Shown in pieces: positions 8,498 to 37,390 of a stretch of 64,000 nt of DNA. Origin of the DNA: a virus; IMG/VR virus record IMGVR_UViG_3300005573_000058, positions 1 through 64,000 of that record; one strand, 5' to 3'. Position numbers and translations under genes: made by a program. The notes beneath the pieces are model-generated. The model made no database searches, was not told where the DNA came from, and worked only from the letters and a program-made list of their open reading frames with translations. Positions within the stretch are counted from its first letter, which is position 1; each line of letters opens with the position of its first letter.

Positions 8498-9726
8498 ATA
8501 GTTATAAAGTTATAAGTTGTATAAAACTTTTCGTTCCAATCACATGATAAATCAGTGAGTGGTTTATCTTCAATGAATAAATCCTCTCCGTTAAATCTAT
8601 TATAAACACCGCTTTTTAAATATGAAATATAACCATCTTTAATAGATTTTAAATTAAATACCATTTTCTTAATTGTTCCAATTTCTAATGTTCCACCAAC
8701 AGGTATATTATTTATATAATCAATTATAGTTTGCATTAAAGATCGTTTATCATTTTCAATTTGATCAGATGTATAATTTTTAGTATCATATACTAAATCT
8801 AATCTAAGACGTATTGATCTATATAATGGAGGTATAACAATTACTTTTTCACCAGCTGCACAAACCTGATTACATACAGCTTCTACTGCTTTTATTACGC
8901 CATCTGATACTACAGGTGCTGTGCCTAATACAATAACACCTGTTATTCCTATACCTCCGTAATTTCTCCTTATTATAACATCGGATACTCCTTCTACAGA
9001 TAAAGCAGCCAATTTTATATCCATTGCTCTTAAAGATCTAAGTTCATTCATCCTGTTTTTAATTCTATATTTAAACTGCTCATCATTCTCCATATTACGT
9101 CCATTAGATATAGGCTGAGTATTTTCAACTAATATAAAATCTGATATATTTTGTAGTTCAGGTTGATTTGTCTTAATGTTATGACGCACTAATTGACCTT
9201 TACCTATATTATATCCTTCTCCTGTAACAGCTGCAACAACATTGACGTATTGTGTACTATTCGCATCTGATAATGTAACATTTTCTAATGTTTCATAAGT
9301 TACATTCATTGAACTATCATATAATCTTGTACCTTTTAATATAGTTATAGTTTTATTATCTCTATCTATTGTATCAGCTACTATACCTGAAGGTATCATA
9401 TCAATTAAATCTGATATAGTATAACCAAATATAGGGTCAATATAGAATCTTACATTAGCTTTTGTAGTATCATGAGCATAAGTCTCTGGATATCTTGTTA
9501 CAGAAAAAATAGTTGCTAAACTATCCAAGCTACTACCAACAGCTGTATCTAAGAACTTATCTAACAATATGTTATCTATATATCTTATAGTATCAGTATA
9601 ATATTTAGCAACTACTTCTGCCATAGTTCTTACAAAAGAACCTGGTGTAGATATAGCTGTTAATCCTGTTCTATTTAATATTCTATCTGTTATTTCAGCC
9701 AGAATAGAATTAAAATTTGGTGTCAT
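8491..9726 (-). CDS. Baseplate J / gp6-like wedge protein, 411 aa
   Basis: PGSFVRT, FLDTAVGSSLDSLA, GEGYNI, NGRNMENDEQFKYRI and ALSVEGVSDV are typical Baseplate_J motifs. Confidence 0.88.
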   Translation of the reverse strand: MTPNFNSILAEITDRILNRTGLTAISTPGSFVRTMAEVVAKYYTDTIRYIDNILLDKFLDTAVGSSLDSLATIFSVTRYPETYAHDTTKANVRFYIDPIFGYTISDLIDMIPSGIVADTIDRDNKTITILKGTRLYDSSMNVTYETLENVTLSDANSTQYVNVVAAVTGEGYNIGKGQLVRHNIKTNQPELQNISDFILVENTQPISNGRNMENDEQFKYRIKNRMNELRSLRAMDIKLAALSVEGVSDVIIRRNYGGIGITGVIVLGTAPVVSDGVIKAVEAVCNQVCAAGEKVIVIPPLYRSIRLRLDLVYDTKNYTSDQIENDKRSLMQTIIDYINNIPVGGTLEIGTIKKMVFNLKSIKDGYISYLKSGVYNRFNGEDLFIEDKPLTDLSCDWNEKFYTTYNFITIC

Positions 9727-9728
9727 AA

Positions 9729-10199
9729 TTATCTCCTTCTATATTTATATATATTTTTACCGCTCATAAAATCTTCGTTTTTTTCTAATGTATAACCTTC
9801 TTCGATAATTCTTTGTAATGTACAACTAGTAGTTGTTATTGTATACTTATATTTTAAAACACTTTCATAATCAACACCATTAGATACAAAGAATGAGAAT
9901 AAAACAGTTGTAAGATCAAGAGGAGCAGCTTTAACTAGAATGTTTAGACCAGGTATAAGAGCATTTAATTTCCATTCTAATATCTTTCTTACTTTTGATA
10001 TTTCTTCTCTTGTATTTTTTATACCAATATAATTATATATACCTATACCAAAAGATGGATGAGAAACAAGTTCACCTGGATTTGTATATAAACATGAATG
10101 AATAAGTTGTGAAACAAATTCTTTAAATGTGACAGTTCTTCTAAAGTCACCTTCTGTGTTTATATATGTATAGCCGTTTTCATCTAAAATTATATCCAT
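9729..10199 (-). CDS. gp25-like baseplate wedge / sheath initiator
   Basis: LYTNPGELVSHPSFGIGI matches the GPW_gp25 motif. Confidence 0.8.
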   Translation of the reverse strand: MDIILDENGYTYINTEGDFRRTVTFKEFVSQLIHSCLYTNPGELVSHPSFGIGIYNYIGIKNTREEISKVRKILEWKLNALIPGLNILVKAAPLDLTTVLFSFFVSNGVDYESVLKYKYTITTTSCTLQRIIEEGYTLEKNEDFMSGKNIYKYRRR

Positions 10200-10827: not shown

Positions 10828-13800
10828 TTATGACACCCCCAAACCTGTAATTTGAGTAAACAAAACACCAACTCTAAGAACAGAATTAAGATAATGAGAA
10901 AGTATTGTATTAGTTCTTGCACCTCTCATACCAGCAATAAATGGTCTATCACCGTAAAACAAACCACATATTTCTATCATTTCTCTTCCGAAAACATATG
11001 CAGCAAATTTTCTCCACTTGTTATATACAACTTGATGCATACCAGCCGTAACTAATGCTGTAGCAGTAACAACAATACCGGTAGCAATCCATCCTACAGG
11101 ACCTGCACTAAGACCAAGAGCTGTTAAACTTTCTACTATTGTTTTAAATGATGCAATACCAACAACTCCAGTAGCAATACCAGGTACAGTTGGAACAATC
11201 CACCCCAATCCACTATATGTATTATATAATGCTTTAACCATGTCGTCATGATAAGATTTATTTTTACGTTTAACATGAACTCTTAAATCTGGTTTTATTA
11301 TTGTTATATAACCAGTTGAAGCATCAAATGAATGTATTACTTCCTCAACATCTATAATGCCTTGCATATTATTATATGCATCATATATATAAACAGTATC
11401 ATATGGTTCAACTGTTGGATCTCCTATAATTACCAATTGACCACCATACATTTCTCTCATTGTATTTGCAAGTATATTAAGACCAACTTTGAATTGTATA
11501 GGCAAGGCAAAATTTAAGTTTTTTAACATATCATTCATAGATATAGCCCATTCACGTTTTGTCGTTTCTGTTTTATTTTTCATTTCTTTTTCTATCTGTT
11601 TTTGTCTTTTTGCTATATATGCTACATAATCTTTTAACCTATAACCATAATCTTTTAATGCAGAATCTATGTTTTTTTGAAATGTTGAATACTCTCTTAT
11701 ATCGTCTATAAATATATCATCATCAGCATACAACTCTATACTATCTAATCTACTCATCCAAGGTAAACCTGCGATAAATCTACCTATTCCTATTCTTTTT
11801 ACATCATTTATATCTGCAACAGGGTTATGTGATGGATAAAACATTATAACTTTATTATAAAATTCTTCTGAACCAGCTGTAATAGAATTATCTATTATAT
11901 GATGTATAGAATCATAAAAATGAGATTTTGTTACTTTTTTATAAGAATCAAAAACAAAAGACATTGCGTTATTTTTCATTAGTTGAGGTACAATATCTAT
12001 TATTGCTCCCGTATTCATTATTTGTTTAATTAGATTAGGTAAAATGCTAACAGTAGCATCTTTTAGGCCGAATTTTGGGTTTTTACCAAGATAAAACCAT
12101 GACCATATAGATGGCCTACCTTTGAATCCTACACCAATTCTATCTTCATATAAATATAAAGCATTAGAAAATACATCAAAAGAATTTGACAATAAATCAG
12201 ATGTTCGTGATTTCATTGTTTCATATAGAGTTTTAAATATTTTTCCCTCTTCAATAAGTTTTTGCTTAAGTTGTGACATAAATACTGTTCTACGACTACT
12301 TCCTTCCATTTCTGCTATTTCATCAATTTTATTCATTTTTTGTCTTAGTTCATTAAGTATTTTTTTACTTTCTTCTATTATATTATTTAACAAAGCATTT
12401 TCAATTGGATTTGTTATATCAGATGCTTTATAATATCCATCTTTAGGTCCTATATATAATGTTTGTCTTGTTGCACCAAATATTTCATCATTATACGGCA
12501 TAACTTTACATATATATTCATTTGTATACAGAAGTGCTTCTTGTATCACATCAAAAGTTGTTTGTTCATGATGTATATACCATGAAAATGTTCTGGTTTT
12601 CGTCAATGCTGCGTATGCTTTACCACCCATCGGTAAATATACATTATCTGTTAAAGCATCATTTATATTATTAACAAAACTAAGATGATTTGTTATAAAT
12701 TTACTAAGTTGTCTTCTTGAAAAATGTGATTGTGCGATTTGCATATTAACATCATCAAATATACTGAAATGTCCTAGACTGTCAGACACATTTATCTTTC
12801 TTAATGCCCAACCAATAACATCTCCAATAGATCTATAGTCTCCACACATATGAAAACCAACATCTTCTTCTTTAGTTGGTTTTTCAAGTAAAACAGCTCC
12901 ATAATCTTGTGCAACAATTCGTATAACTTCTCCAGGTGTTAATTCTACAACCTTACCTATAAAAACTGTTGGCATTTCATCTAGATTATTAGAATATCCT
13001 AATTTAATAACTATTTTTGAACCAACTTGTAATGGAAAACTAGCCATAAATTGTTCATATGCTGTATCAGATGATAAAGAAGGCATAGTACTAGGTGAAA
13101 ATTCATTAGTACCAATAAATTCTATACCTGTTGACTCACTTTTAAATGATAATACATTTGATATATTAGATAAAACAATTTCTGCAGTAGAACTTGCTGC
13201 TTTTCTACTTTTTACAATTTTTATACTTTGTACAGCATTATAAGCATAAAAATCATCGAAACACAACCATGCATCGCTATCTTCTTCAACAAGAAATAAT
13301 TTAAATGTTGGATATGCTCTTTCCATACCATAGGCTAGCTTAAATGTTGTTTCAGCTGCTTCATCTAAAGCTTCCATTGCTTCTGTTAAACTTAGCAGTG
13401 AGGTAAGACCTAATTTAGATGATAAACTTTCAGTAGCTTGAGATATATATACAGGTAATATATCATGATTTAATAACACACCTAGATAATGCATCCAATT
13501 GGTCAATGTATCAATTTCTGTTGTTGTATTATCTATAGCCATTTCAAAATATCGTTTATCTGTATCTGACATATTTCCAGTACTTTGTTGATTATATAAA
13601 TTTAACGCTGCTTCTAAAAATAATTTTCTTGCATATGCTTTAATGTAAGTAAAAATAATTTCAACTCTTAAAAGATATTCTGATAAAAATCCTCCTAAAT
13701 TATCATCTAACTTAGATAACACATTTCGAACAGTATCTTTATCAGCAAAAATTAATGTTTGCATTCTATTATCCAAAGTTCTTTTTTCACTTTCACCCTC

Positions 13801-15126
13801 TTTAGGTATTAAAGCATCAATAATTTCTTTTATTTGTGATAACAGTTCCGATGATATAGTATTGTTACCTTCTTTAACTTTTTCATTTACTTTATTGAAT
13901 TTATATACTATACCATTGGCAAGATCATTATATATCTTAAATAAAGACTGATCTGGTCCAACAGGTTTTTTTACAAATAGAGTATCAAGAGTATATCTAT
14001 TTGTTTGTAACATTTGTTTAACATAAGGATTGTTTGAGTTTATGTCAACAAATTCTATTAAAGGTTCTGCTTTATTTTCCTTTAACATTATTTCATTTAT
14101 TAATTTACCATCGCGTATAACAAAAGCAATTAATCTACCATATGGATCAACAGTATTAATTAAAGAAAAACTAATAGTTATTTTATCTCCAACTGATATT
14201 AATTGTTTTAAAAATTCAAAAGATTGTTTTCCTTCCTCTGTACTTATTTCTGGTGCATTTATCATTGCAAATCTAACCGTTAATGTATATTCTTTAGAAC
14301 TAGATTTACTTATATATTTAACTCTTATAGTATCACCATCTATAATTTCTGATACTGTTACATCTAAATTACAAGTTGCATTAGTTAAAGTACTACCTTC
14401 ATCTGATTTACTAATATAAAGATTACCAGAAGCATCTTCTATAACTTCATCTATCACTTGCTTTTTTTCTATATATTCTGTAGGACTACTTTTTCCTATA
14501 GGATTAGTTATTATAATATCTACTTCATCTAAAACCATCGATAATAAACTTAGAATATAACCTATAGTCTGTTGTATATATGCTTTTAACATCAGTTGTG
14601 ATTCTAACAACATTGAATTATAACTAGACAAATCTTTATAAAAGTAAAAAGTAGGATGAAAATTAACAATATCATAGGATGGAAAAGCATTAATAGGTTC
14701 TTTTGATATCAATTTAGCAATAATATCATAAGAGCCATATGGATTATCAGGATCATTAGATTTTGGTAGACCAAATTCAGGATAACCTATAAGTTGTCTT
14801 ATCTTACTACGATATAATTCCCTTCTTTTATTCAAAAAATCATGTAAAAAAGTGTCAATGCCTGATGGATCTGCACTGCTATAATCTTTACTTAAAATTT
14901 CAGGAAAATCAGAAATTACAAGCATAGGAAATGTTAAATATTCTTTAATTCTTGCTGTAATTTCATAATGTTTTAATAAAACTTCCAAAATATCCTTTGT
15001 ATTATCTGACTGCCATAGATTCCAAGACAATGAAACAACATCTCTAAACAATGCTCCTGTTGAAGGAACTTCTTTTAAAGTAATTGATTTATTTTCTTCG
15101 TTTATCTCATAAGCATAATTATTCAT
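10828..15126 (-). CDS. Baseplate hub-like protein with an inserted thermonuclease (SNase) domain, 1432 aa
   Basis: Hub-like IKLGYSNN..VFIGKV..VAQDYG and GQLVIIGDP..PYD..DVEEVIHSFD; SNase IIDGDTIRV..RFAMINAPE..DPYGRLIA. Confidence 0.75.
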   Translation of the reverse strand: MNNYAYEINEENKSITLKEVPSTGALFRDVVSLSWNLWQSDNTKDILEVLLKHYEITARIKEYLTFPMLVISDFPEILSKDYSSADPSGIDTFLHDFLNKRRELYRSKIRQLIGYPEFGLPKSNDPDNPYGSYDIIAKLISKEPINAFPSYDIVNFHPTFYFYKDLSSYNSMLLESQLMLKAYIQQTIGYILSLLSMVLDEVDIIITNPIGKSSPTEYIEKKQVIDEVIEDASGNLYISKSDEGSTLTNATCNLDVTVSEIIDGDTIRVKYISKSSSKEYTLTVRFAMINAPEISTEEGKQSFEFLKQLISVGDKITISFSLINTVDPYGRLIAFVIRDGKLINEIMLKENKAEPLIEFVDINSNNPYVKQMLQTNRYTLDTLFVKKPVGPDQSLFKIYNDLANGIVYKFNKVNEKVKEGNNTISSELLSQIKEIIDALIPKEGESEKRTLDNRMQTLIFADKDTVRNVLSKLDDNLGGFLSEYLLRVEIIFTYIKAYARKLFLEAALNLYNQQSTGNMSDTDKRYFEMAIDNTTTEIDTLTNWMHYLGVLLNHDILPVYISQATESLSSKLGLTSLLSLTEAMEALDEAAETTFKLAYGMERAYPTFKLFLVEEDSDAWLCFDDFYAYNAVQSIKIVKSRKAASSTAEIVLSNISNVLSFKSESTGIEFIGTNEFSPSTMPSLSSDTAYEQFMASFPLQVGSKIVIKLGYSNNLDEMPTVFIGKVVELTPGEVIRIVAQDYGAVLLEKPTKEEDVGFHMCGDYRSIGDVIGWALRKINVSDSLGHFSIFDDVNMQIAQSHFSRRQLSKFITNHLSFVNNINDALTDNVYLPMGGKAYAALTKTRTFSWYIHHEQTTFDVIQEALLYTNEYICKVMPYNDEIFGATRQTLYIGPKDGYYKASDITNPIENALLNNIIEESKKILNELRQKMNKIDEIAEMEGSSRRTVFMSQLKQKLIEEGKIFKTLYETMKSRTSDLLSNSFDVFSNALYLYEDRIGVGFKGRPSIWSWFYLGKNPKFGLKDATVSILPNLIKQIMNTGAIIDIVPQLMKNNAMSFVFDSYKKVTKSHFYDSIHHIIDNSITAGSEEFYNKVIMFYPSHNPVADINDVKRIGIGRFIAGLPWMSRLDSIELYADDDIFIDDIREYSTFQKNIDSALKDYGYRLKDYVAYIAKRQKQIEKEMKNKTETTKREWAISMNDMLKNLNFALPIQFKVGLNILANTMREMYGGQLVIIGDPTVEPYDTVYIYDAYNNMQGIIDVEEVIHSFDASTGYITIIKPDLRVHVKRKNKSYHDDMVKALYNTYSGLGWIVPTVPGIATGVVGIASFKTIVESLTALGLSAGPVGWIATGIVVTATALVTAGMHQVVYNKWRKFAAYVFGREMIEICGLFYGDRPFIAGMRGARTNTILSHYLNSVLRVGVLFTQITGLGVS

Positions 15127-15132
15127 AACATC

Positions 15133-18100
15133 TTAATATTCTAAATATGGAGGTTTTACCTTTGTTATATCTGTAGCTTTACCTGATAATCTTCTGTACT
15201 TTTCTTTTGCTCCCAAGTTCATCTTACGTTGTGTTTCAGTATATTTATCATCAAGATCTTTAAATTTACTCAATAAATAATTAACAAAAAATCTGTCTTT
15301 ATATTGATCAGCCTTGCCACTTTTATAAATGTTATATAACAGGTTATAAAAGTTTATTACATCACTCGGTTTTACCATTCTTAAATCAGTTATTCTTTCA
15401 TATCCATACATAGATAAATCATTCTGTACAAATTTAATAACAACATTAAAGGCACCAGGATTACCTTTTATAGATTGAATATCAATAAAATCTATAACAC
15501 ATTCTCTTACTCCTAATAGTCCGAACACACCACTATCATTAGTTTTTATAGTTATAGGAAGAATAGGTGTTTTAGTTAATATAGAAAATCTGTTTTTAAC
15601 AGCTGCTGTATATTGTATTCTATTTTGCATTACTCTCAGTTCTTGTATAAGCATTATATCAGTGGTTTTAATATTCAATGTAACTTCCCAATTATCTCTT
15701 CCTATAAACTGATATGTTGGCATGTTAAACTGCAATGTTTTTAAAGGAACAAATCTATTTCTATAAGAAGCACTCCAACTAGTTATAGCTGTTTTGGAAG
15801 TATTTTCTATAACAACTCTAGATTCTTGATTCATTATAAATAGTTCAGCAAAACTAGACTTAACTATTTGATCTACAGCATCTCTAACAGCGTTTCCTAA
15901 TAACAGTGCTATACGCATCTTTTTATTATTATCCTCACCTATATTAACAATATCATTAATAATTTTGCCAATTTCTTGTTCTTGAACAGAAGCAACTTCT
16001 CCAGCAGATGGTACTGTTTCTCTCATTCTTTTTAGTAAATTTTCCAAGTAAACTGATATAGAGGTTTTTATACTATTATCTTCTTGAGACATATTAATAT
16101 TATTTTTCAAAGTATCAACAAATTTATTATAAGCATAAGCTGGAGCTCTTAATAAAGCTTTTAATGCGCCAAAAAATTCCGTCCATATAGATTTAATATA
16201 TCCATTAATTGTTAATATAAAGTCGCCTAAACTTATACCTGCTTGTTTCATATATTCTTCTACTGAATCTATCATAGATTTAAATGTTTTTAAATCAGTA
16301 TATAACTTATTTAATTTTATATCTAAATAATCAGAATTTGTATAATTGTATGAAAATACATATTTATCAAATGTATTTTCTCTTACTTTTCTCAAAATTG
16401 TTTCACCACTACAATTGTCATATGTCGTATTTGCATGTTCTTCTAATATATCTGTATAATAAGAAACATAAGGTTCGGACGCACCAGCTGCAAAGGTAAA
16501 ATCAACTGGTTTCTGTTCTTCAGGTTTACCCATGTATATATACATTTTATTTAACATTTGATTATAAGAATCTGAGTAACTTTTACAAAATGCAAATGTG
16601 TTTACATAAGGTATATAGTTAAATATTTTTAGACCGAAAGTAGCTTGTATACTTCCAGGATGACCTTCAATTGAAGATAAAACAACAGAATCAAGAACAA
16701 CAGCTAAAACTTGATCCTCAAAAGAGATTCCGCTCCTATATTCTATGTTTTTGTATTGCTCTGCCATAGATAAATATTTTTCTATCCTTTCTCTTTCTAC
16801 TTTATCATCTTTCTTTTCCCATTCTTTTTCTCCCAAAATATCTTTACTTTTTGATATTAATTCATTAATATCATATATACCACTAGCAATAGCATATTGC
16901 AAAACTTTTGATCCTTCTGCTGATATATTAGTAACATATTTAGGTAATTCTATTGCAGGTAAAATATTTCCAAAAACTATCTTATTTATATGTTTATTTT
17001 CTAGTATAGTAAATGGTGTTCTTAAATATTGAGCTAATATATGTCTAAGTTTATAATTTATAGAAGGTATATCTGGAAAAACAGCAGATATTTCTATAAT
17101 AGACTCACTATTACCTGATTTTAATAAAGGAACAGCATTATATCTTATTGTATTAAAAGGTATATTTATGTCTCTTATCATAAAATGTATATCTGTTGGC
17201 TGAACAACTATATTTGTATCTCCTATAATACAAGCACTAGGACTATCAACTTCTGGTGATAAACTTAATAACTCTGTATTTGCGCCATAATAATTGCTTA
17301 CATTAAAATCTAGAAAGTTTACTGTATTTAAACTAACTATATTAATATTATCTTTAAAAACAATCGGCTTACTTTCTATATTATTAGTAACACTTCCATT
17401 ATCACCTGTTATCATTTTATACTTACCATTTTCAAATATAACGGTATATCTCTGATTAACTATACTACTGTCTATATATGATGGTGTTTCTAACCCAAAA
17501 ATATTATTCAATGCTTCTGCTTTTCTTCTAGTTAGAACATATTCACGAGATTTACCAGCTTTTAAAGCTTTTATAACACTGTTTATATTACCATCATAAC
17601 TATATATCGCAAAATGAACATGTGGTCCTGTCCAAGTTACAACAGAACCTATTCTTACGATATCACTGCCATAATATACTGTTTTTCCTAAATATAATTC
17701 CTCGTTATTAACTGCCGAATGAATTTGATACTCAAATGCTTCAATATCACCTATTCGAACCATCTTATTTAATATATTTCTATTTGGTTCAACATGAATA
17801 AAAACAAAACACAAGTTAGTTTTTTCTGGAAAAACATATATACTGTATGCATATACATTTTTAGAACTTCTCATATCACCGAAAGTAGCATTTACCATTT
17901 TTCTGGTACATAAAACTCTACAAGATTCTTGTACATATTGCTTATTTTGATTATATATTTTTCTACCAAAAGGTGAATAGACTTGTAAATTTGCTCCAGC
18001 AAAATCTATTCCGTAATGAGAATTCCATCCTGGATTCTGTCCACCAATCCAGCTATTTGGATCTAAAGCTTTTTCTGAACCTAAATATGCTCCTCTAGTT

Positions 18101-18216
18101 ATTATTGCATATTTTAAAAAAGCATTAAAATAAATATCAATATCATCTACTACATAATGCAACTTATCTCTAGTTATATCTGCTCGAAATACCTTTGATA
18201 ATCTACTACTGCTCAT
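15133..18216 (-). CDS. Tail-associated protein with an N-terminal M23 peptidase domain, 1027 aa
   Basis: HYGID (HxxxD) at 18004-18018 and GPHVHF (HxH) at 17611-17628. Confidence 0.75.
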   Translation of the reverse strand: MSSSRLSKVFRADITRDKLHYVVDDIDIYFNAFLKYAIITRGAYLGSEKALDPNSWIGGQNPGWNSHYGIDFAGANLQVYSPFGRKIYNQNKQYVQESCRVLCTRKMVNATFGDMRSSKNVYAYSIYVFPEKTNLCFVFIHVEPNRNILNKMVRIGDIEAFEYQIHSAVNNEELYLGKTVYYGSDIVRIGSVVTWTGPHVHFAIYSYDGNINSVIKALKAGKSREYVLTRRKAEALNNIFGLETPSYIDSSIVNQRYTVIFENGKYKMITGDNGSVTNNIESKPIVFKDNINIVSLNTVNFLDFNVSNYYGANTELLSLSPEVDSPSACIIGDTNIVVQPTDIHFMIRDINIPFNTIRYNAVPLLKSGNSESIIEISAVFPDIPSINYKLRHILAQYLRTPFTILENKHINKIVFGNILPAIELPKYVTNISAEGSKVLQYAIASGIYDINELISKSKDILGEKEWEKKDDKVERERIEKYLSMAEQYKNIEYRSGISFEDQVLAVVLDSVVLSSIEGHPGSIQATFGLKIFNYIPYVNTFAFCKSYSDSYNQMLNKMYIYMGKPEEQKPVDFTFAAGASEPYVSYYTDILEEHANTTYDNCSGETILRKVRENTFDKYVFSYNYTNSDYLDIKLNKLYTDLKTFKSMIDSVEEYMKQAGISLGDFILTINGYIKSIWTEFFGALKALLRAPAYAYNKFVDTLKNNINMSQEDNSIKTSISVYLENLLKRMRETVPSAGEVASVQEQEIGKIINDIVNIGEDNNKKMRIALLLGNAVRDAVDQIVKSSFAELFIMNQESRVVIENTSKTAITSWSASYRNRFVPLKTLQFNMPTYQFIGRDNWEVTLNIKTTDIMLIQELRVMQNRIQYTAAVKNRFSILTKTPILPITIKTNDSGVFGLLGVRECVIDFIDIQSIKGNPGAFNVVIKFVQNDLSMYGYERITDLRMVKPSDVINFYNLLYNIYKSGKADQYKDRFFVNYLLSKFKDLDDKYTETQRKMNLGAKEKYRRLSGKATDITKVKPPYLEY

Positions 18217-18415: not shown

Positions 18416-21400
18416 TTAAAATATATTCTTAAATGTAACAGGATATGGCACAGATGTCATATATTTATCGTAATCATCAACATTTCCTATAACATTACCA
18501 TATTTAAGAGCCATTTGATACTTTTTATAACGATAATAATTATCAAAAGTAGATATATTACGTTGTAATCTAATTCTCTTTTTGCCGTAAGGTATATATC
18601 TAGGACTAGTTAAGTTTTCGCCATAAGGAACATCCATTTCCCAACCAGAAAAATCCTGATCACCAACCATAAATCTATGTCTATTCAATTGACTCATAAT
18701 ACCTACTGTACCAAAAGCAATACCACCTAAAACACCAAGAGTTTTAAATGTACCTTTATTTTTTGCTACGCTTTCTCCAAAATTTTTACTAAAATTAGCA
18801 AAAGAAATAGCAACTTTATCAAATCCTATATTTTTAGCTGTTTTATTTATAAAAGATGCAAAATCAGTCATAAAAGAAGATGTTGAACCTCTTTCTATTA
18901 TTCTTGTGTAATAATCATCTGATGCTTCTATAATAGATTTTAATGCAACATCACTTTTGGCACCACCTAATGTTGCAACTATTTTTTCAAAGAATGGATT
19001 TGTTATAAGCATTTCTGGAGTTGTTGGATAAAGAAGAAACGTTTTAGCTCTTGTTAAAGAAGCTGTGATTTCATCTGCATCTCTATGTTCTATTAATACC
19101 TTATGCATTAAAAGATCTGTCAACTCAGCTGCTGAAAGTTCTTTCTCGCCTTCCGGTGCTTTATACTTGTATTTAAATGACTGTAACATTCCCTTCATTA
19201 CTCCTATAATTTTTTTGGCTTCTTCCGGCCTATTAGATAAACCATGTATCAGCTGTTCCACTGTCAAATCAGCTTCCTTATTCTGTCTAGCAGTAGTTTT
19301 TATACCTACATATTCCTTTAAACTATATAAAGCATGATAAGCATCTGTTAATATTTTACTGACAAGTTCTTTATCTGTAATTCCAACATCCTTTAATACA
19401 CTTGGGCCAATTAAATCTAATAATTGTAACTTCCTCATATATGCTGTATCAACCTTACTTATTTTATTCAAGTCCATAACCTTTTTAAATAATCCTTGTA
19501 TCGTAAAATCAGACTTTTTAAGATTTTCAAAAGCATTTTTTACAATATCTTTAAATGAATCAGATACATTTAATCCATAAACAACATATTCATCATAGTT
19601 TTTAAAGTCTTCTAGTACGTTTTCACTAATACCTGCTTTTTGTAATCTCGATTTTAACTCGGCTGAAAATTCATTTATTGTTGGAAAAACTAATGTTACA
19701 TTTCCTTCTCCTGTTCGTCTTATTATAGCTCTTGCTGTTGAAAATGAGATACCTCCTTCTCCAAAAATATTATATATTTCATTTATATTATTAAATTGTT
19801 TTTCTTTTATCTTTTCTTTAAATATCTGTTTTGCTTTTATATAATCAACAACAGATGAATAATAACTCTCTCTAAGACCTTCCTCAAGATCGCCACTCAC
19901 AGATGAAATCATATATATTAAGTCCTGGTCAAGGTCTCTATATATCAATTTTAATATATCTAGTGAAACCTTGGTTGATTGGTTTTCAGACTCATTTGAT
20001 AATACTACTCTAACTGGTACTAAACCACCAACGTTGGGCTGACCTAAGAGAGGAATAAAAATTTCTCCTTTTTTACTTATACTTTGCTTTATTTTCTCCC
20101 ATCTTTGAGGGTCTCTTGCTTTAGCAACACTTTCTATAAATTCATTCCAATCTCTATTAGACAGCATAACAGTCCTAAAAGGTACGTCTGTACTAGAATT
20201 AGCAACAGTTTGTAGTCCTGGCAATAGAGATTTTAGAGCTAAAATACCTTCAGCTTTATTATTTCTAAAAGCACTATCTATATAATTAAAATAGTCGATT
20301 AAATTATTTTTTAATATATCAAAATTACTTTCCTTTATTCCCTCATTTAACAAATAAATTATATTCAATGCTGTAGTAGTTGTTGTCGGCAAGTTCATAA
20401 CACTCTGTTCTTCAGCATTAAATGCTATTAGATATGGTGATACTCTTGGTATATATATTCTTTGAACATCCTTACCTGTTAATCTCTTTATTAATTCTCT
20501 TGCATTCATTTTTTCAACCTTTTCTCCTTCTTTTATACCCAACTTAATTTTCATATCCTTACCTATATTTCCCAAAGTAACATCAACATTACTTATATCT
20601 ATATAAAGAAGTTCAGGATTTATACCCTTAGACTTAATAAAAGTATTAATCCACCTAGGTATCTCAGTCTCATTTTCAGGTTTAAGATATTGAGATATTC
20701 TTGTAGCATTTAAAAAAACGTTACTAAAACTTCCACCTTGTGGGTCATTTACTAGTTTACCACCTGTTGCTGTTACAAAAATTTTATTATCAATTGCATC
20801 TTTTATATCTTTTGCTACATCTTTTATAGTTGTAGGAACAACATTTAAATTTCTATTGTTTTCAAGAGCATTTTTGATACTTTCTATACCTCCAATATCT
20901 GCCCATGTATACAACAATTCAGCGCCTTTGCCGAATATATCAGCATATGAAACAGCTGTTCTATAAAAATGTTTAATAACATCTTCATTCACAGGAGCAC
21001 CCCACATAAAACTGAATGGTTCTCTCATCATACTTATTTTAATACCCCTACCTGCTATTATATCCCTCAAGTTAAGCATATGTCTTAAATACATTTCATC
21101 CAATCTTGTAACAGAAAACATTTCAGCTCCAAGTACTGCTATATAATATTGATCAAATTGTTTTCTCAAAGAAATAATTTTTGGTAGTCCAACTAGTCTT
21201 GTTTGACTCTCATCTGCAATACCTAATGATTTATAAATACTTAATAAATGTTCCTCTATATCTTTACCTTCTATTTTTTTACCATTCATTGTTATACTCA
21301 TCCCTCTCAAATTATTAACATCTTTTTCTTCCCATTTACCTATTGTATTAACTTTGAGTGCTTCTTCTCTTATAGTTCTTCCTATTTTGTTTTTTATTTC

Positions 21401-24400
21401 ATTATAATTCTCTTCATTCAATGTATTTTTTACTTTTGCATTAATCAATGTTTCTAAATCTTTATCTAAATCTGGAAACATTTCCTTTAACTCATCAATA
21501 ACTGTTCTATCTGTTTTACCCTCTGTTATATATTTAATAATATTCGCATTATACTTTTCAAGAGCTATTCCTTGAGCTATAAAAGTATATAAAGAACCTA
21601 ACTGATCTTTCTTAAAAACACCTCCTAAATTTATCACTGCATCTATATTTTCATTACTGATAGAAATAAGTTCTCCATAGTCATACTTCCCTATTACAAT
21701 AGCTTTTGCTAAAGCACCTAGAACTTTTAATCCAGGTCTAACATCATAAACAGGGTTTATCTTGTGATATACAAATACTTGATTCAAATCATTAGAATAC
21801 TTTACAGATATATCATTTAATAAATACATTCTAGGATTTTTTATTATATTTGCATTTTTCCTTTTTATATCAAACAATTCTTCCTTTGTATACTCTGTAA
21901 TAAAAAAATCTTTAAATTCTTCTCTCAGTTCTTCCGTAACACTAGATATAACTTTTTCAATTTCTATCTCAGTATTTTCTAACTGTTTTCTTAATTCTAC
22001 AGCCTCTGTTTCACTAGCTGATTCAAGTTTCTTCATTATATTGTCTATTTCTTGTTTTAACTTAGTAAGCTCATTTTCTCGTTTTTTAAATACTTTATTA
22101 ACTTTGCTCTCTATCAATCTACTAGCAGATCTATCTTTAACAAAATATTCAAATTCAAGTGTTTTATCTTCATCTCCAGTAGGAAGATATAAACCTGTAG
22201 AAATAGAATTTTGACCTATTTTTATAATAGTTTCAGCTTCAATAACATTTTGTGTACTTTTAGCAGATGTATGCCCTAACATCTGCATCAGTTCTGGCCT
22301 CATCATTGCGGCACCTTCATCAAAAACTCCTCCTGTTGTTGCTATAGCTTTAACCAAAATAAATCTATTAAAATTATCAATAACTTGTTCTTTTCCAGTT
22401 CTAGAATATGGTGTATGAGAATTAAATAAATGATAAATTCTGCTAAATTCCTTCACTGTTTCTTTTTTGTTTCCTCTTTTTGACATTTCAACTATTCTTC
22501 CAACAACATTTTGTCCTTTGTTAACAACATGTTCTTTAACTTCGTATCCAAGAGCCTGAGCTTTTTTTGTTAAAAATACAAATTCTGAAAGAATAGGTGA
22601 AACTTCCCTAAACATTTCAGAACCTGCATTCAGAATAGCAAATGGCGAAAAATCTTTATATGCATCTGTAAGACTTTTAGCAACAATAGCTGTCATATTC
22701 TTAGCTGCATTTTTTGTAACTTGTAAAATCGGATCTGATATTTTATACATGACACCTAATGCCGTTGCTGCAAAATCTGATAAATTTCCACCTTGTTGAG
22801 AATTAACTAAAGAATTTACCACAGGTTCAATGTACGATCTTAGAATATTAGCATCCTGATATTCTTTTTTAACTGCTTCAATATCTTTTATTAAATTATC
22901 TAATAACAACTTTTCAAGAACAGTATCATAAAGTGCTGTATGTCTCCCTCCTTTCTCTATTTGTTCTTTTAACTCATTATGTTTATCTATATATGCTCTA
23001 ATAGCTTCTTCCATTTTTTCTTTTGATCCGTAATAATACAATCCCCAAACTTCTGCACTACCACCAGTTCCTGTTGTCAAAATATTTAATATAGGGTTAT
23101 TAATAACAATATTTTTTCCGTCTAGATTATGTTCTCTAGTAAGAAATTGTGGAAACAGAGAATAAAAAGTTATCAAACCTGCTCTTAAATCAAATATATT
23201 AAATCTTCTAAATTCATCTGCTTGTTTTAGTAATCTTACAAGTGAAAATTCATCAAAAGCCCCTGGTGAAAATGAAAATATAACATTCGCGCTAGTGTTT
23301 TTAGTTATTTCATTAAGAGCTTCTGCCCAACTTGTTTTTCCACTTCTTATTTTTTCTTTTATGATATTTAACTTACTTTCTACATCTGTACCATGTCCTA
23401 ACAGTCCTATTTTTTTAATAAGATCACCAAAATTCTTTTCGTTAATTTCATTATTTGTTAATGTAAAAATATCTAAATAAGTATCCATAAAATCAATACT
23501 TTCACCTTTTAAAAATATACCTGCAACTTGATATGGATATCCTTTAAATTTCTGATCTACTGTACCTGTTGGAATCTTTTTGGGTATCCCTTCAATATCA
23601 ATAATAGAAAAAATTGATGAATTTGGATTATCTGTTATTCTAAAAATTTGATTTAAAGCTCTCAGACCCTCTGAAAACATATCATACATAAAATCTGATT
23701 CTCTAAATGTATTTGATGGTCTATTTAAAAGTCTTAATATAGAAAAATATACAGTATTTAAAACATTCTTTCCAGCAAATTTATTAAAATCAAAATATTC
23801 ACTAAAGTAACCCATCATTCTATTTTTAATAAAATTTTCTGTACTTTCAATATCTTGACTTTCCCCACTCTCAACTGCTGAAATAATTTTATCTGTCAAT
23901 CTTTCACTTGTGAGAAAATCTCTAATCATATCAAATAACGTTATATCAGGATAATATTTAGGTACTTGGCCTCTACTTGTCATATATTTATAAGGAATTG
24001 GTATATTAAGTTCAAAAGGTCTCTTTGATCCACTTTCTTTACTCAACTTAATAACTAATTCAGGAATACCAGTTTCTGTGTCTCTTGTATAAAAGTCTAT
24101 AACTTTAATAATACCTTCACTTTTCTTCACAATATGGTCCACAAGTTTTGCAGTATTTAAAGAAAAATTTAAAAATAAATCGGTAGATGGAATGGTACCT
24201 GACAACTTCTCATTTAAAACTTTTTGAACTTCATTTATTGTCAACTGATCTGGAGGTATATTAAATAGAAAATTTTCTCTGAATACTTTTTTAATTGATA
24301 ATCCTGTAAATTTAAGTTCTTGTTCCTTTATAATATTTAATAGCTCACCAGATTCTATTAAAGAACCAATAATACATCTTGTTAATTCATTGTCGCTGAA

Positions 24401-32400: not shown

Positions 32401-32996
32401 CCCTGACCCCACACTCTTTTTAATGATTCATAATATCCCTTAAAAGAAGATTCAGCTGGTTTATTAACTGTAAAATACTTAATAAAATTATTTATCTTTC
32501 CATATGCCCTTCCTATAAATCCTGTATCTTTTCCAATATAACTTTCTACAAATGATAAAAAAGAAGGTTGTTCGGCATATTTTCCACCTGCAATAGCTCC
32601 TTCTATAAGAGAAAAAATTGGATTTTTTATAGTTCTTTCTGCTGCTCCTTTAGCTGCTGCAGCAGCTGCTGCTTTTGCTGTAGATACTTCAGCTGTTGTA
32701 GCTGCAGCCGCAGCAGCATCTGTTGCTACTGTTGATGCTGCTGTAGTTGCTGCTTTTGCTGCATTAATAGCTGCTTTAATAGCTTCTGATCCATGTTCAC
32801 TTAATGCTCCAACAACTCTTTTACCTATACCTGCAAAAAGGCCACCAAATGCTTCTTGAGCTACGCTCCATAAAACTATATTACCAACAAATAAACCTGC
32901 TTTTTTAAGTAAATTACCTGCTAAACTGCCCCAAGATCTAGTAGGCCTTTCATTCTCTTCTAATTTCTGCCTGATATATTCTTCTCTGTTCATCAC
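26406..32996 (-). CDS. Tape-measure-like / ejected protein (2196 aa; start probably ATG 32993)
   Basis: Follows the chaperone pair; G/A-rich hydrophobic segments; degenerate PD-(D/E)xK-like domain. Confidence 0.65.
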   Translation of the reverse strand: MMNREEYIRQKLEENERPTRSWGSLAGNLLKKAGLFVGNIVLWSVAQEAFGGLFAGIGKRVVGALSEHGSEAIKAAINAAKAATTAASTVATDAAAAAATTAEVSTAKAAAAAAAKGAAERTIKNPIFSLIEGAIAGGKYAEQPSFLSFVESYIGKDTGFIGRAYGKINNFIKYFTVNKPAESSFKGYYESLKRVWGQGKFFGVEKGNLKGVIPYLGAGAVYGTARWIPPSVSWYAASRFTAPEEYKDKPLFNPLSTVSDFTKYTLSNAMFFGAGGVITKGIGSSIRGAFRSLSSVNVPQGIVNKIVAGSDFLLTTLYYGMSIMDKVRSKMQNIISDNGERTQSFIRNIYNLYNSNQVAPGGKIKDVLGYIKRKSSELLKEFNVSRASKIMNGWIGVLRDETEKFRLMSKYDPYSKMFTQALNTIVDQFQGVGGAEGQKVQAEMALLDRTINSFTKHRVPNFLSKIATSSKFGVERAEILLEGTSLSKANIEKMTNNLKEIMQKKREIVLKYLSEKNIADIFPYMTESNNKLFNVALAAPGELVERTLRAMTNVGFYIPFTHHKIQPLAFLGPQYIVERNPPIHFMDSGILGTRTQINRGEELGMYIGGKAYLINKSALTNYISKLEEIKEAKMLTPDKVKEVEESLFNSEKAIMKNIDPDLTFKSFQRSSTIARIYNRLAKRDYYDRLPLQTTFKALGIDKEGEYGKGFFGKAMRFMYKTMAALEVGPFSDPSSSASDLLEMSTSVRSPIGFFLNIFKGEAFNNMIEGIDDILSQVGKSPQRVLKVTTKWYNMLLNYMQDSFSSLARHKSYVYNQLKKFLDGYNVSIEQFANPREAAKYVLSLAASENSTTSVPRNIEQLARTVLESEVPTALKEPKHIQDIIETAAYIYKAQERITLKNAKSDLYRELERMGNTLGIKGLAHLGDAMNISFQYQKVLKDIYEARRKGDIDIENLFSTSTVQTLVSTLFGNEGRGSPKLQVLQQIYESAPRIRRFFYAEPYGPLLHNDLAGIWTRAGEDMFSTSPYTWIPVRGNGTFKDFFTSVARKSTHTMDPAGALSKGSSPSDVDKNAAIYLQDIIPRFLFERFNSVGSSMGLSLDTTNPQYRSLLDLAIKGIFMKRVLPIAGAIVGWNTLDTFFDTCPLFDRTPLGQGLNVFLGSTFANVNKFTAKARDILGVTDFASYMEGLFPGIINSPFSKIFRFTTFPFVGAALGMRYGPTGAMTGAIIGATLGTYTAVSDMTKSVRDLEDEYEGYNLVPYKSNAGWILSKGNILGDRIYGFGPSWYARLRSQWKYTANVYGNKLESLIFKPWPALGFNPIGTLVDPFHYERKHYYTRPYPLATPAFEDIPIAGPLVAASAGKFLKPSLLMHKDQLAESFKEPFWPDLYFRNVEGLTQDITGFTGIFAPEHEKIGPFGGDIMNKFQNYSEGIHMFPDETGGRIGIPNIPQVGISTVFSESWYRMITEPMGIYGFLTSMKNVPGEAMARLAQTNLYQSTRRAFWEGSIGSFGLFTEYLRRYFPNFTNINMNLNPIRNRMPEWISSGKSFVDLRFGDPYSKVPAMGELFLPGPAYESWRHPLNTFPAYASYLDNELETITAKMLGIYYPTNAEILSERMETPYKQLVLDELERRNLLIQREAELYDPFTDIEGTADGVVRYLGKKMLINIEALPSDELYPSTLINRFSSKVNFMMKQMGLDTSIVIGIDVNDPTRSIAVPVHYNRAKYQEDITKLMTARAIATKSLEQGFVKSTYGAGYSHLDRLRVLGNVFPLVYSPEYKKELNIVKQQIALGILPDSVQDEVDEIQFNRNMIIQGQEFYTHRFLHQITSPSSKVTQMNLNKNIKAASEYSDIERILGAAYEALQNVEIPFFTRKFFNYRSPLEAYEQDIVYGSANSYWNNPVNSFIGPAVRSFYRRDDIISSSLASATFFGTMLGPTFIGVGATLGAIGSAVKNVAGAFGKYFIPPSIERMRDINQTFDNLEYIRAKQAYDDTNMRTFAEQANETVRGQLANLSSMTVASAMKAVYKPEQKYFLGMYQTEDIEERKKMLGILPPDVGAMLSNLWNMDKNTNRNTTFVRKRFNYGPNSNIWADNSYSGVGLEDNLDDIKYDVMKREGLDYHLVGLGWQDQIVRKQVYDRLNYSAVLESKKIDKFASVNINSSNLSSAVASVFNRFGIQVFVTVMDQAGPDDIYIDIEV

Positions 32997-34037: not shown

Positions 34038-35519
34038 CTATATAATATCATTATAATCCAAGCATAATCTCACAATTCTTCTCATATATCTTAAATTCTT
34101 TTTAGACACGTCAGGCTCTGCTGGTGTTACAGATGGCAATGTCATTGTTTTTTCAATATTATATACTGAAACATCCAAATCGAAAACAAATTTTTCAACT
34201 TTACCTTTACAAAGATTTTTAGTGTCATCATCCAAAAAGATTTTTACATGCGTTTTTACATATTCATATATATCTTTTTCTATTTCACCTTCTCGATACC
34301 CATGTAGATAACCTAAAAAATCTTTTAATTCCATAACTTGTTTTTCTTTTACATCAAGTTTGTCTGGTGGCACAGTATATATCGGTACAAACCGCAAATA
34401 TAGAAATTTATCAACTGCATTTGGTTGAGGTAAAAAAACATCGACAAGAATTTTATTAAGCTTTTCAATTTCATCACTTGATACTGTGTTTTTCAGTAAT
34501 ATATCTTTAAAACTTATATTATCAATTGTAAGAACACCACTAACAACAACTTCTGTATTTGCTTCTTCTTTCTTAGTAGGTTCTTCAACTTGTATTGGCT
34601 TCTGATTTTCAATATCATCGCTCTTAACAGTATCTGCTTGTTTCATTAAATTACCAATAGCAACATCAGCATGACGAGCAAAAAATGTATATGTTACAAC
34701 TACAACATCATCTACAGTTATATTTTGTGACTCACCAACAATATGAACATCATATATATTTTTAACTGTATGCTCAGCTGCTGGAACATTCATATCACCA
34801 TATAATAAAACAAAATTGATTGCATTATTACCTGTACCTAATATACTTATTTCATCATTAACACTATCATAAGAATAATCAGCTTCATCTATTCTTCTTA
34901 ATCTATTTATTTGATTATCCCACCTAGCAAGAGAATTAGGATCAATATTTGAACTTGATAATTCATGCCACCACTTACCACCCCACAAATAATCTTCCAG
35001 TATTTCTGCCATATTCTCATATTCTGATAAGTTTGGATCAGCATAATTACTCAAAAATTCAGCTATGTTCCTATATATAGCAACAGGCGAATTTACAGCA
35101 CCTTGTATATATCCTACAGCCGGTGTGACATCATTCAAATATCTATAATAGTATAAAGATCTGATTTTAGATCTATCTTTTATAGCAAAATCAGTAGGCT
35201 GTTTTGATAATATATAATCAATAATAACTTCATTTTGATCTATTTCTCCTTGTGCTACTTTTCTAATAAGCTCCAAATATGCTTGTTCTGTAAATGCTAT
35301 AGAAAATGATCCTTCAACTAAAAAATTACCGCGTAATACAGCATCATATTCAGTTGAATTATAACCATAAATAGGAGTTTTAGACTGATTAGAAGACCAT
35401 TGAAATGCTATTATATCATCGACCCATATACTACCAACAAAAACTCTTACTTGCGCACCAGTGTATGCATCTACTAAATATGTTGTTCTTATATCACGCA
35501 ATTCGTTAAATCTTTTCAT
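34038..35519 (-). CDS. Tail-tube-like protein (tube initiator paralogue), 493 aa
   Basis: YTGAQV..QSKTPIYGYN..RGNFLVEGSF aligns by eye with the tube protein. Confidence 0.6.
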   Translation of the reverse strand: MKRFNELRDIRTTYLVDAYTGAQVRVFVGSIWVDDIIAFQWSSNQSKTPIYGYNSTEYDAVLRGNFLVEGSFSIAFTEQAYLELIRKVAQGEIDQNEVIIDYILSKQPTDFAIKDRSKIRSLYYYRYLNDVTPAVGYIQGAVNSPVAIYRNIAEFLSNYADPNLSEYENMAEILEDYLWGGKWWHELSSSNIDPNSLARWDNQINRLRRIDEADYSYDSVNDEISILGTGNNAINFVLLYGDMNVPAAEHTVKNIYDVHIVGESQNITVDDVVVVTYTFFARHADVAIGNLMKQADTVKSDDIENQKPIQVEEPTKKEEANTEVVVSGVLTIDNISFKDILLKNTVSSDEIEKLNKILVDVFLPQPNAVDKFLYLRFVPIYTVPPDKLDVKEKQVMELKDFLGYLHGYREGEIEKDIYEYVKTHVKIFLDDDTKNLCKGKVEKFVFDLDVSVYNIEKTMTLPSVTPAEPDVSKKNLRYMRRIVRLCLDYNDII

Positions 35520-35521
35520 AA

Positions 35522-36628: not shown

Positions 36629-36631
36629 TTA

Positions 36632-37336
36632 TTAAACTCCTGTTAGAGTTGGAGGAACAAGATTTCCAAATGTTCCACCAATGTCATTACCCTGACCTTG
36701 AACTTCCACAGGAACCCAAGGAGTTATATTACTAGCTACCCATGTAAACTGATCTTCTATGGTAAGGTCTTCTGTAGATATGCCTTGTCCGTGGTTCAAA
36801 AATTCAACTCCATAAATTGCCATTGACATTGCCTGTCCAATTTCATTCCTACCCGTAACTGTAACATCAAAAGGTGGAATCTGATCTGGATAATGCGGAG
36901 AACTAAGTGTCATTCCAACAGCAGAACCATTACCAAAATTATTTACCACTCCAGCAAGTCTTTTCCCTTGTATAGCATTACCATTATTATCAACACTACT
37001 TCCAAGATAAGCATTTTCTATATCATTGCCATAATCTTTTCTCGCATATTTTGTTTCCTTCATAAGATCATACAAAGCATCCCTATCATAAACCACAAAA
37101 ACCATTGAACCTGCAATCCCCCGTTTGCCTCTGGAAAAACTAAGCGGGTTTGGTGCTCCTAAAACATAAATAGGAGCTTTCTCTCTTGTTACACTAAAAC
37201 TAATTCCTTGACAATTACCTAACAAGTACGTTCCTACAATCAAATTTATGTCAGAACCTCCCATAGAGGTATAACTTCTAGCAACATCAGAAACCACACC
37301 ATTCATACCAATACCACCAAAATTACTTGTACCCAT
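36632..37336 (-). CDS. Major tail tube protein (start revised to ATG 37336, MGTSNFGG)
   Basis: Immediately after the sheath; ISFSVTREKAP..RGKRGIAGS..DQIPPFDV; GGGAGG RBS precedes 37336, while the longer TTG start overlaps a terminator. Confidence 0.8.
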   Translation of the reverse strand: MGTSNFGGIGMNGVVSDVARSYTSMGGSDINLIVGTYLLGNCQGISFSVTREKAPIYVLGAPNPLSFSRGKRGIAGSMVFVVYDRDALYDLMKETKYARKDYGNDIENAYLGSSVDNNGNAIQGKRLAGVVNNFGNGSAVGMTLSSPHYPDQIPPFDVTVTGRNEIGQAMSMAIYGVEFLNHGQGISTEDLTIEDQFTWVASNITPWVPVEVQGQGNDIGGTFGNLVPPTLTGV

Positions 37337-37365
37337 AACTACCTCCCTTGTTGGTATCACAATAT

Positions 37366-37374: not shown

Positions 37375-37390
37375 TACGAAATACAAAAAC

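Follow-up and report, generated by a model that had tools for sequence, protein, structure and literature searches.

The middle giant of a phage contractile-tail module shares a short module with polymerase-signature giants and carries no detectable polymerase barrel

The first 64 kb of IMG/VR virus record IMGVR_UViG_3300005573_000058 (138,661 bp, ~28% G+C, CheckV completeness estimate 80%), hereafter the window, contain an open reading frame (ORF) of 2662 amino acids (aa) that an initial annotation had read as a hidden single-chain RNA polymerase, with both double-psi beta-barrels in one protein that would be packaged in the virion and ejected. We found this ORF to be the 'middle giant' in a contractile-tail module, to hold the place of known virion giants, to match over about 150 residues a module of the giants of phage WH1 and its relatives, and to be without any barrel signal. 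The reading we favour, at about even confidence, is that of a tape-measure-like, ejected tail giant descended from polymerase-bearing giants, which has no demonstrable catalytic barrel and in which the barrels would be lost or dead. Polymerase ancestry is plausible from synteny, the shared module and the distance between one Asp-rich motif and a C-terminal hydrophobic helix; none of these observations shows an active enzyme.

Results

Position of the ORF in the tail module

The tail module runs from sheath, tube and tube paralogues through two small chaperone-sized genes to a gp145-like giant, the 2662-aa ORF, the hub/endolysin giants and the baseplate. The two small ORFs lie between the tube-like paralogues and the 2196-aa ORF, and the two giants of 2196 and 2662 aa come after them. 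PHROG scans of the window recovered terminase, portal, capsid, sheath, tube-like and baseplate genes on the flanks of the 2662-aa ORF (Table 1). The upstream neighbour, P0003, is a homologue of gp145 of Bacillus phage 0305phi8-36 and provided the synteny anchor: tblastn matched the same gene in six phage records, and the gp145 homologue is also present in WH1, Edson, KLEB27-3 and Moorella phage MTATph1. The downstream neighbours of 1027 and 1432 aa were matched by phrog_20474 with expectation values (E) of 1.9e-39 and 1.6e-7, and by tblastn to WH1 gp094, a KLEB27-3 baseplate protein and 0305phi8-36 ORF147.

Within this arrangement the place of the ORF, between the gp145 homologue and the hub/endolysin giant, is that of gp146 in 0305phi8-36 (2537 aa), gp095 in Bacillus phage vB_BceM_WH1 (WH1; 2515 aa) and gp034 in KLEB27-3 (2434 aa). 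The database record of gp146 reads 'hypothetical tape measure protein; identified as virion protein by mass spectrometry'. The ORF is thereby the positional counterpart of an annotated tape measure; it is gene order alone that suggests a tape-measure role for it. BLAST found no similarity of the ORF to gp146 (best BLASTP E 1.4) or to the WH1, KLEB27-3 or Moorella giants. The middle giant of the Moorella phage appears to be broken by a transposase gene (locus L007:15513-22869; transposase 19539-21026), with a DEDDh domain in CDS0027 (PF00929, E 5.4e-5) and a C-terminal end of CDS0031 that matches the C-terminus of the WH1-type family (hmmsearch, E 5.7e-8). Neither gp146 nor CDS0027 contains a DxDxD motif.

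Polymerase signature of the WH1-type giants

In WH1 gp095 and KLEB27-3 gp034, GLYGF[TV]NRYPTIN is followed after 36-38 residues by KAD[HY]DGD. Eight distinct relatives were gathered from protein, IMG/VR and metagenome searches, and NRYPT together with D[YH]DGD was present in 8/8 loci checked (three of them duplicates or a fragment, the other five distinct sequences). D[YH]DGD is also present in P0008, P0009 and KLEB27-3 gp034, which are included in the five-row alignment A1, where NRYPT and DxDGD are invariant. A K-type motif, AKMDMSGRFRIQGV, lies ~95 aa before RxP, and DEDDh motifs stand near the N-terminal end (aa 105-370) with D110, E112, N276, D281, H360 and D365 invariant; PF00929 reached E 0.13 in family member P0009. 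PF00623 (Rpb1 domain 2) was the first or second Pfam match in each of the three members scanned (E 0.09, 0.0076 and 0.015, below the curated cut-off). The five-row profile of the signature region gave only four PDB matches, every one an RPB1 homologue aligned at NRxP...DFDGD (E 0.15), and the profile of a 1020-aa family segment (A2) gave none among PDB sequences at E ≤ 10. These giants occur in Bacillus jumbo myoviruses and metagenomic phages, where database annotation is only structural or hypothetical. The motifs indicate a canonical polymerase signature next to a DEDDh exonuclease in the giants of one lineage of Firmicute myoviruses (among them WH1, Edson, KLEB27-3 and several metagenomic phages).

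The structure model of a family member, built from the five-row alignment, had a predicted local distance difference test score (pLDDT) of 49.5. Foldseek of this model against PDB gave no match at E ≤ 0.001, and the match at rank 2, the AR9 non-virion polymerase 7s00_d (E 0.15), lay within the noise band. Because the model is poor and the fold matches are at noise level, the polymerase nature of the family is read from sequence signatures only. In the full-text literature searched, passages of PMC7824862 and PMC4870245 included, we found nothing that describes tail giants of the WH1 lineage as carrying a polymerase signature; for 0305phi8-36 the passages of PMC7824862 list the stand-alone YonO-like enzyme and no other. 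WH1-type giants may already be among the 23 polymerase families aligned in Supplementary Data 3 of PMC10770324, which lay outside the literature search.

A module shared with the WH1-type giants

Family hidden Markov models (HMMs) matched one stretch of the ORF, in which aa 1304-1456 align with WH1 aa 2060-2211, a segment that begins ~64 residues after the first Asp of DxDGD. With filters off this module scored 15.3 bits, a score reached by 0/500 global and 0/500 window-40 shuffles, and no other domain in the six-frame ORFs of the genome scored as high; next came the DYDGD region of a true YonO-like polymerase, with 5.8 bits. In a jackknife, eight of nine models found the same place (0-3/1000 shuffles reaching the score in seven of them and 29/1000 in one), and the model from WH1 and P0008 alone missed it. 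The same module alignment was returned by hhalign (P 0.035). In the module core of the ORF, YSRTGKEQVIDNFNRF ... NVIEAETIIKIGQNSIST (aa 1332-1403), R, G, K, D, N, E, Q and S are kept, about half of the invariant residues of the module. 0305phi8-36 gp146 had no match to the module, and in a Smith-Waterman comparison of the module with RpoC 760-945 the score was reached by 176/500 shuffles. A second module copy was considered at aa 2283-2399 (1.7 bits, 0/1000 shuffles there) and dropped, the site being tied with an unrelated one when a module-only HMM was used.

C-terminal hydrophobic helix

The most hydrophobic segment of the ORF is a Gly-rich helix that lies 107 residues before the C-terminal end, and the earlier wording that the protein ends in such a helix is roughly right. 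A like segment (G..GGA..FGAMWAASAL) is found 116-123 aa from the C-terminal end in the eight D[YH]DGD giants tabulated, and the hydrophobic segment of 0305phi8-36 gp146 lies 128 aa from its end. The wording of the ORF helix is similar to that of the family (G..GG..FG); the transmembrane and C-terminus HMMs of the family had no match in the ORF.

Proposed polymerase motifs and their chance level

Five motifs had been assigned to the two barrels, and all of them are present in the translation of the 2662-aa frame, with the spacings that were claimed (21 residues from K1567 to D1588 and 34 from P2123 to D2157). With BLOSUM62, and under order and spacing limits, we scored against shuffled sequence those five E. 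coli motifs that the initial annotation quotes. The constellation scored 60, compared with a mean best of 60.5 ± 5.7 in 300 shuffles; the five-motif set is no better than chance. The beta-prime pair (GQP and DLDQD against NRAP and NADFDGD) scored 14 vs a shuffle mean best of 24.5, and when aa 2095-2175 were compared with E. coli RpoC 405-480 by Smith-Waterman, 317/500 shuffles matched or beat the score. A protein of this composition is expected to hold 0.40 DxDxD motifs, at least one being present in 33.5% of 2000 shuffles, and two occur in the ORF (DLDKD at 1645, DLDQD at 2157). The rank of 5 that a family position-specific scoring matrix (PSSM) gave to the DLDQD site was dropped as support: the other DxDxD ranked 6th, and the rank is circular because the matrix rewards any DxDxD.

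The beta-like pair (PGLK..K and IDAVINLGGV) is the only motif pair beyond chance. It scored 42 vs 25.1 ± 4.3, with 12/5000 shuffles reaching that score, and aa 1530-1630 compared with E. coli RpoB 1040-1140 by Smith-Waterman gave a score reached by 13/500 shuffles; the excess is modest, the earlier reader having scanned the whole window. K1560 and K1567 are 7 apart, not 8. When the ORF was compared with E. coli RpoB and RpoC by BLASTP, the best E was 0.14 and no segment fell at the proposed sites.

Residues at the proposed sites depart from those of known enzymes. Eight residues are described as invariant in all two-barrel polymerases in passages of Ruprich-Robert and Thuriaux (PMC2919709), the Arg of RxP among them; this position is Gly 2121 in the ORF (GQP, with Pro 2123 kept), and the Gly of DxDGD is Gln, as the initial annotation itself had cautioned. 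The FDE motif at 1362/1363, proposed as the counterpart of beta E813/D814, lies inside the module shared with the WH1-type giants, opposite non-conserved positions of a region that in those giants is helical and lies downstream of the catalytic loop; being within that module, it is probably not the beta Asp, and its assignment to the E813/D814 position is doubtful.

An active, extremely diverged two-barrel virion RNA polymerase, with barrels at K1560/K1567/D1588 and P2123/D2157/2159/2161, carried in the tail, ejected to transcribe early genes and possibly joined to a DEDDh exonuclease upstream, is in our judgement quite improbable. The order and spacing of its motifs, the beta-like pair, the syntenic sister-group giants with their canonical signature and a weak match to the region after the catalytic site at aa 2283-2399 all speak for it, as does the position of DLDQD 398 aa before the hydrophobic helix, compared with 367-415 aa in canonical DxDGD giants (chance ~0.036); there is also a precedent for a tape-measure-fused virion polymerase in gp96 of phage P23-45, according to the passages of PMC10770324 consulted. 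These points are met by the substitutions of the RxP Arg and of the DxDGD Gly, by a beta-prime pair below chance level, by an FDE inside the shared helical module, and by the lack of any match from PF00562, PF00623, PF05183 or the family barrel HMMs. Moreover, the K-type motif and RxP are ~95 aa apart in the family vs the 560 aa proposed, the match at aa 2283-2399 is lost with the module-only HMM, the robust module precedes both proposed barrels and would demand a permuted order, and the genome already has two bona fide polymerases. The claim of a packaged and ejected polymerase divides: the ORF is syntenic with virion giants, and an active enzyme at the proposed sites is not shown.

Searches for barrels, homologues and folds

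No profile, alignment or fold placed double-psi beta-barrels at the named motifs. Pfam and PHROG scans found no polymerase or exonuclease family in the whole ORF (Pfam, E ≤ 0.1) or in three pieces of it (Pfam, E ≤ 10), and PDB sequences had no match to it at E ≤ 10. Genome-wide at E ≤ 10, PF00562 and PF00623 matched nothing, and PF05183 matched two other genes (29.4 and 12.1 bits) and not the 2662-aa ORF. Homology searches returned only the ORF itself: phmmer with aa 1300-2450 among 1.84 billion representative proteins, word-based searches with aa 1-1300 and aa 1300-2450, tblastn against 50,697 phage records, and IMG/VR pattern scans with the ORF and both downstream neighbours, which found no other homologue of the ORF. 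AlphaFold2 without an alignment gave an unusable, mostly helical model of aa 1300-2300 (mean pLDDT 35.5, predicted template modelling score 0.24), and the ESM Atlas held no usable match for aa 1300-2300, with only chance-level VWA rows at 0.79 for aa 901-1500.

HMM blocks of the WH1-type family for the K-type motif, RxP and DxDGD had no match anywhere in the ORF, and the family barrel HMMs had none in aa 1500-1700, in aa 1990-2290 or at the collinear barrel place (aa 1100-1310). When 420-aa windows were aligned semi-globally to the core of the family, none was prominent; of 113 windows, the collinear one ranked 80th and the beta-prime one 106th. An hhalign comparison of the whole ORF with the family gave a probability of 0.15% at an unrelated place and missed the shared module, and hhalign of a five-row family alignment (A3) with aa 2050-2450 gave E 0.27 away from the DLDQD site. 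BLASTP of the ORF against the YonO-like protein of its own genome had a best E of 0.35, away from the motifs. We also dropped the idea that a polymerase unit had been duplicated within the protein: self-BLAST showed no repeat.

One alternative is a dead polymerase core collinear with the family, whose barrel remnant would lie just upstream of the shared module, at ~aa 1190-1260. In this case TDAYKDF would be what is left of the catalytic loop, RxP would have turned into a sequence with neither a basic residue nor a proline, and the downstream motifs would be chance. The family module starts ~64 aa after the first DxDGD Asp (WH1 D1996 to aa 2060) and DAYKD (aa 1247-1251) stands 57 aa before the module in the ORF; by eye, NMTAIVAKSLTDAYKDFSPFAIL resembles the LTVGTA.RLKADYDGDF.S.VL of the family. 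Set against this spacing, the family PSSM ranks the site only 30th-68th of ~2640 positions, 236/1000 shuffles do as well as aa 1100-1310 with the core HMM, window 881-1300 is the one ranked 80th of 113 above, and a DEDDh-like reading competes for residues 931-1164, neither of the two being significant. We consider such a remnant quite improbable too.

DEDDh-like motifs and the case for a plain tail protein

Motifs resembling those of DEDDh exonucleases can be read in the ORF (Table 1). The best chain found with a lineage PSSM was at aa 931/1064/1151, and 95/300 shuffles reached its score; PF00929 had no match in the genome at E ≤ 10 or in aa 901-1200. The exonuclease motifs are N-terminal in the WH1-type giants (aa 105-370) vs aa 931-1164 in the ORF.

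With an exonuclease chain that is not significant, a five-motif score equal to the shuffle mean and a DxDxD expectation of 0.40 at this composition, the ORF might instead be a plain tape-measure or internal tail protein without polymerase ancestry, the module being structural and the motifs chance products of a long helical protein rich in Lys, Ile, Asn and Glu. The absence of DxDxD from 0305phi8-36 gp146 and Moorella CDS0027 fits this view, as do the mostly helical, low-confidence model of aa 1300-2300 and the unproven identity of the module as bridge helix or trigger loop (fold matches at noise level; 176/500 shuffles for RpoC 760-945). We nevertheless regard it as unlikely. In the family the module borders on the invariant catalytic signature and has itself many invariant charged residues, a pattern that fits an active-site element better than a spacer; gp146, which is without DxDxD, is also without the module that the ORF has; and the beta-like pair and the Asp-to-helix distance would both need coincidence.

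Stand-alone YonO-like polymerases

Two paralogous single-chain polymerases of the YonO/QDE-1 type, matching each other at E 3e-25, are encoded in the same genome outside the window. Both carry GAEVKG..KG, R.P and GDYDGD. The 863-aa protein has an N-terminal RNase H-like domain (PF13456) and the motifs FRSP...GDYDGD, and the 695-aa protein has TRNP...GDYDGD.

The occurrence of such enzymes was compared over NC_009760.1, LC597490.1, OM634661.1, OR602862.1 and the 264-kb record G001 (loci L006, L010, L011, L007 and L012), too few genomes for statistics. 0305phi8-36 has a stand-alone PF05183 polymerase, gp99 (E 1e-20), which is not flagged as a virion protein. In WH1, KLEB27-3 and G001 the giant carries the signature and PF05183 has no match; Moorella MTATph1 has neither the signature nor such a polymerase. 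Among these few genomes the stand-alone polymerase and the giant signature are complementary, and the phage studied here follows the 0305phi8-36 pattern.

Other genes of the window and genome

Three genes lie outside the main argument. The 1432-aa hub/endolysin-like giant (10828-15126, minus strand) contains a thermonuclease-type domain at ~aa 250-360 (phrog_452, E 3e-10) that tblastn related to SPbeta YokF-type nucleases at ~33% identity, and it could be a nuclease that the tail tip delivers. Between terminase and portal, a 707-aa ORF (49840-51963, minus strand) has weak matches to tape-measure PHROGs (E 2e-5 and 2e-4); its position is odd for a tape measure, and a coiled-coil head or scaffold protein is its probable identity. 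The 1499-aa NrdD, an anaerobic ribonucleotide reductase (genome 106338-110837, L004:2338-6837, plus strand; PF13597, E 1e-153) also matches Pfam domains for intein splicing (two stretches) and LAGLIDADG (three stretches).

Table 1 Coordinates of the middle giant, its features, neighbouring genes and compared loci (window positions unless a genome position or locus is given)
Feature	Residues (aa)	Position	Strand	Basis
2662-aa ORF (P0001), middle giant of the tail module		18416-26404	(-)	ORF list and translation
FDEGAAMM (D1362/E1363)	1361-1368	22301-22324	(-)	translation
PGLKVLGALAKAIV (K1560, K1567)	1557-1570	21695-21736	(-)	translation
IDAVINLGGV (D1588)	1587-1596	21617-21646	(-)	translation
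LLGQP (P2123)	2119-2123	20036-20050	(-)	translation
DLDQD (D2157/D2159/D2161)	2157-2161	19922-19936	(-)	translation
Shared module, ~150 aa	1304-1456	22037-22495	(-)	hmmsearch --max vs family HMMs
DEDDh-like motifs IIDIEG, NIFD/GAFDEF and GGRHTALYD	934-939, 1051/1071 and 1152-1160 (ExoIII 1155-1160)	22913-23614	(-)	
Gly-rich hydrophobic helix TLGVLGGIAFGTVGIMSQL	2555-2573	18686-18742	(-)	top hydropathy segment of ORF
Upstream neighbour P0003, 2196 aa, 0305phi8-36 gp145 homologue		26406-32996	(-)	BLASTP E 7e-20, collinear segments
Downstream neighbours, 1027 aa and 1432 aa, counterparts of 0305phi8-36 gp147 hub/endolysin giant		10828-18216	(-)	phrog_20474
Baseplate genes		8491-10199		PHROG scan
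Three tube-like paralogues		34038-37414		PHROG scan
Sheath		37458-40337		PHROG scan
Capsid		43522-44850		PHROG scan
Portal		47706-49817		PHROG scan
Terminase		51963-54068		PHROG scan
YonO-like polymerase, 863 aa		genome 66805-69396 (L002:2805-5396)	(+)	PF05183 27.1 bits, cut-off 23.8
YonO-like polymerase, 695 aa		genome 85436-87523 (L003:1436-3523)	(+)	PF05183 12.1 bits, E 0.003 for genome
WH1-type giant, ~2450-2550 aa		L010:10593-18140	(-)	
WH1-type giant, ~2450-2550 aa		L011:9004-16308	(+)	
WH1-type giant, ~2450-2550 aa		L012:2977-10569		
WH1-type giant, further locus		L016:7830-15197		
WH1-type giant, further locus		L025:7809-15242		
WH1-type giant, further locus		L027:912-8342		

Discussion

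In the reading we favour, the ORF would lie in the tail lumen as a tape-measure-like protein, be ejected on infection and anchor in the host membrane through its C-terminal Gly-rich helix. It would share an ancestor with the WH1 gp095 and KLEB27-3 gp034 giants, an ancestry of which only the ~150-aa module (aa 1304-1456) would still be detectable, and its catalytic barrels would have been lost or become degenerate, together with the activity, leaving no polymerase at the proposed sites. The two stand-alone YonO-like polymerases would then be left to carry out any transcription by phage enzymes, an arrangement found in 0305phi8-36, which has gp99 beside a gp146 without DxDxD. Synteny, the shared module and the DLDQD-to-helix distance are what make polymerase ancestry plausible.

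Several observations weigh against this reading. The module match is weak (hhalign probability 1.5% at the P value given above); a model from the five-row alignment A3 scored 4.1 bits there, reached by 3/1000 shuffles, and a profile search of the phage's own genome with A3 returned nothing at E ≤ 10, nor any first-look candidate. The module lies ~1250 aa before the helix in the ORF vs ~330 aa in the family, an unexplained difference that makes the ORF and the family giants not collinear. The power of the barrel tests is low: with the same family HMM, the scores of P0006 and P0005, the two true polymerases of this genome, were reached by 4/1000 and 287/1000 shuffles, and since only one of the two is detected, a very diverged barrel could be missed. 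Should the module be the bridge-helix/trigger-loop part, its retained invariant residues may argue for a working active site somewhere in the ORF. The beta-like pair is unusual in both shuffle tests, and DLDQD falls within the range of distances to the helix seen in WH1-type giants. On the side of the comparison set, no structure confirms the WH1-type family as a polymerase, and the tape-measure assignment of either giant goes back to a database annotation.

Were the ORF active after all, which we think quite improbable, it would unite a DEDDh exonuclease and a two-barrel polymerase, diverged or rearranged and without the RxP Arg, in one contractile-tail chain. Together with the WH1 gp095-type giants it would then define a class of myovirus tail-giant polymerases that are ejected through the tail tube, anchored in the membrane, and transcribe or prime on incoming DNA, and a residue considered invariant across all two-barrel polymerases would no longer be so. 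If, as in the reading we favour, its barrels are truly lost, the polymerase would move between a tail-giant-fused and a stand-alone form, which bears on how phage transcription strategies evolve.

Among known systems, phi14:2, a crAss-like phage, offers in gp66 (PDB 6VR4, as cited in the consulted passages of PMC10770324) a very large virion protein said to contain a two-barrel polymerase that has almost no resemblance in sequence to known ones. It comes from a podovirus and its structure has been solved; the ORF matches no PDB sequence at E ≤ 10 and has no model fit for comparison. YonO of SPbeta and the QDE-1-type enzymes (PF05183), named as models in the initial annotation, are single-chain two-barrel enzymes of Firmicute phages, and the ORF differs from them in having no PF05183 match at E ≤ 10. 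The only tape-measure-fused virion polymerase that turned up in the literature searched is gp96 of the siphovirus P23-45. The passages of PMC10770324 consulted describe it as a tape-measure protein with an N-terminal virion polymerase, demonstrated in activity and structure, and a non-virion paralogue in the genome; that polymerase was first spotted from DxDxD alone, its overall similarity to known polymerases being undetectable. Like gp96, the ORF is a giant tail protein with a membrane segment in a genome with a separate two-barrel polymerase. It differs in its contractile tail, in DLDQD where gp96 has a canonical DFDGD conserved in homologues, in the Gly for the RxP Arg, and in being known from sequence alone.

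The closest comparisons are those of position. 0305phi8-36 gp146 shares with the ORF its place and a C-terminal hydrophobic segment, and both genomes have a stand-alone YonO-like polymerase; unlike the ORF, gp146 is without DxDxD and without the shared module. The WH1-type giants differ from the ORF in their invariant NRYPT...D[YH]DGD, a signature that the ORF lacks, and in their sub-threshold RNA polymerase matches in Pfam and PDB. WH1 gp095, KLEB27-3 gp034 and their metagenomic relatives (annotated 'virion structural protein', 2434-2546 aa) otherwise resemble it in place, similar size, module, helix and, putatively, DEDDh-type motifs.

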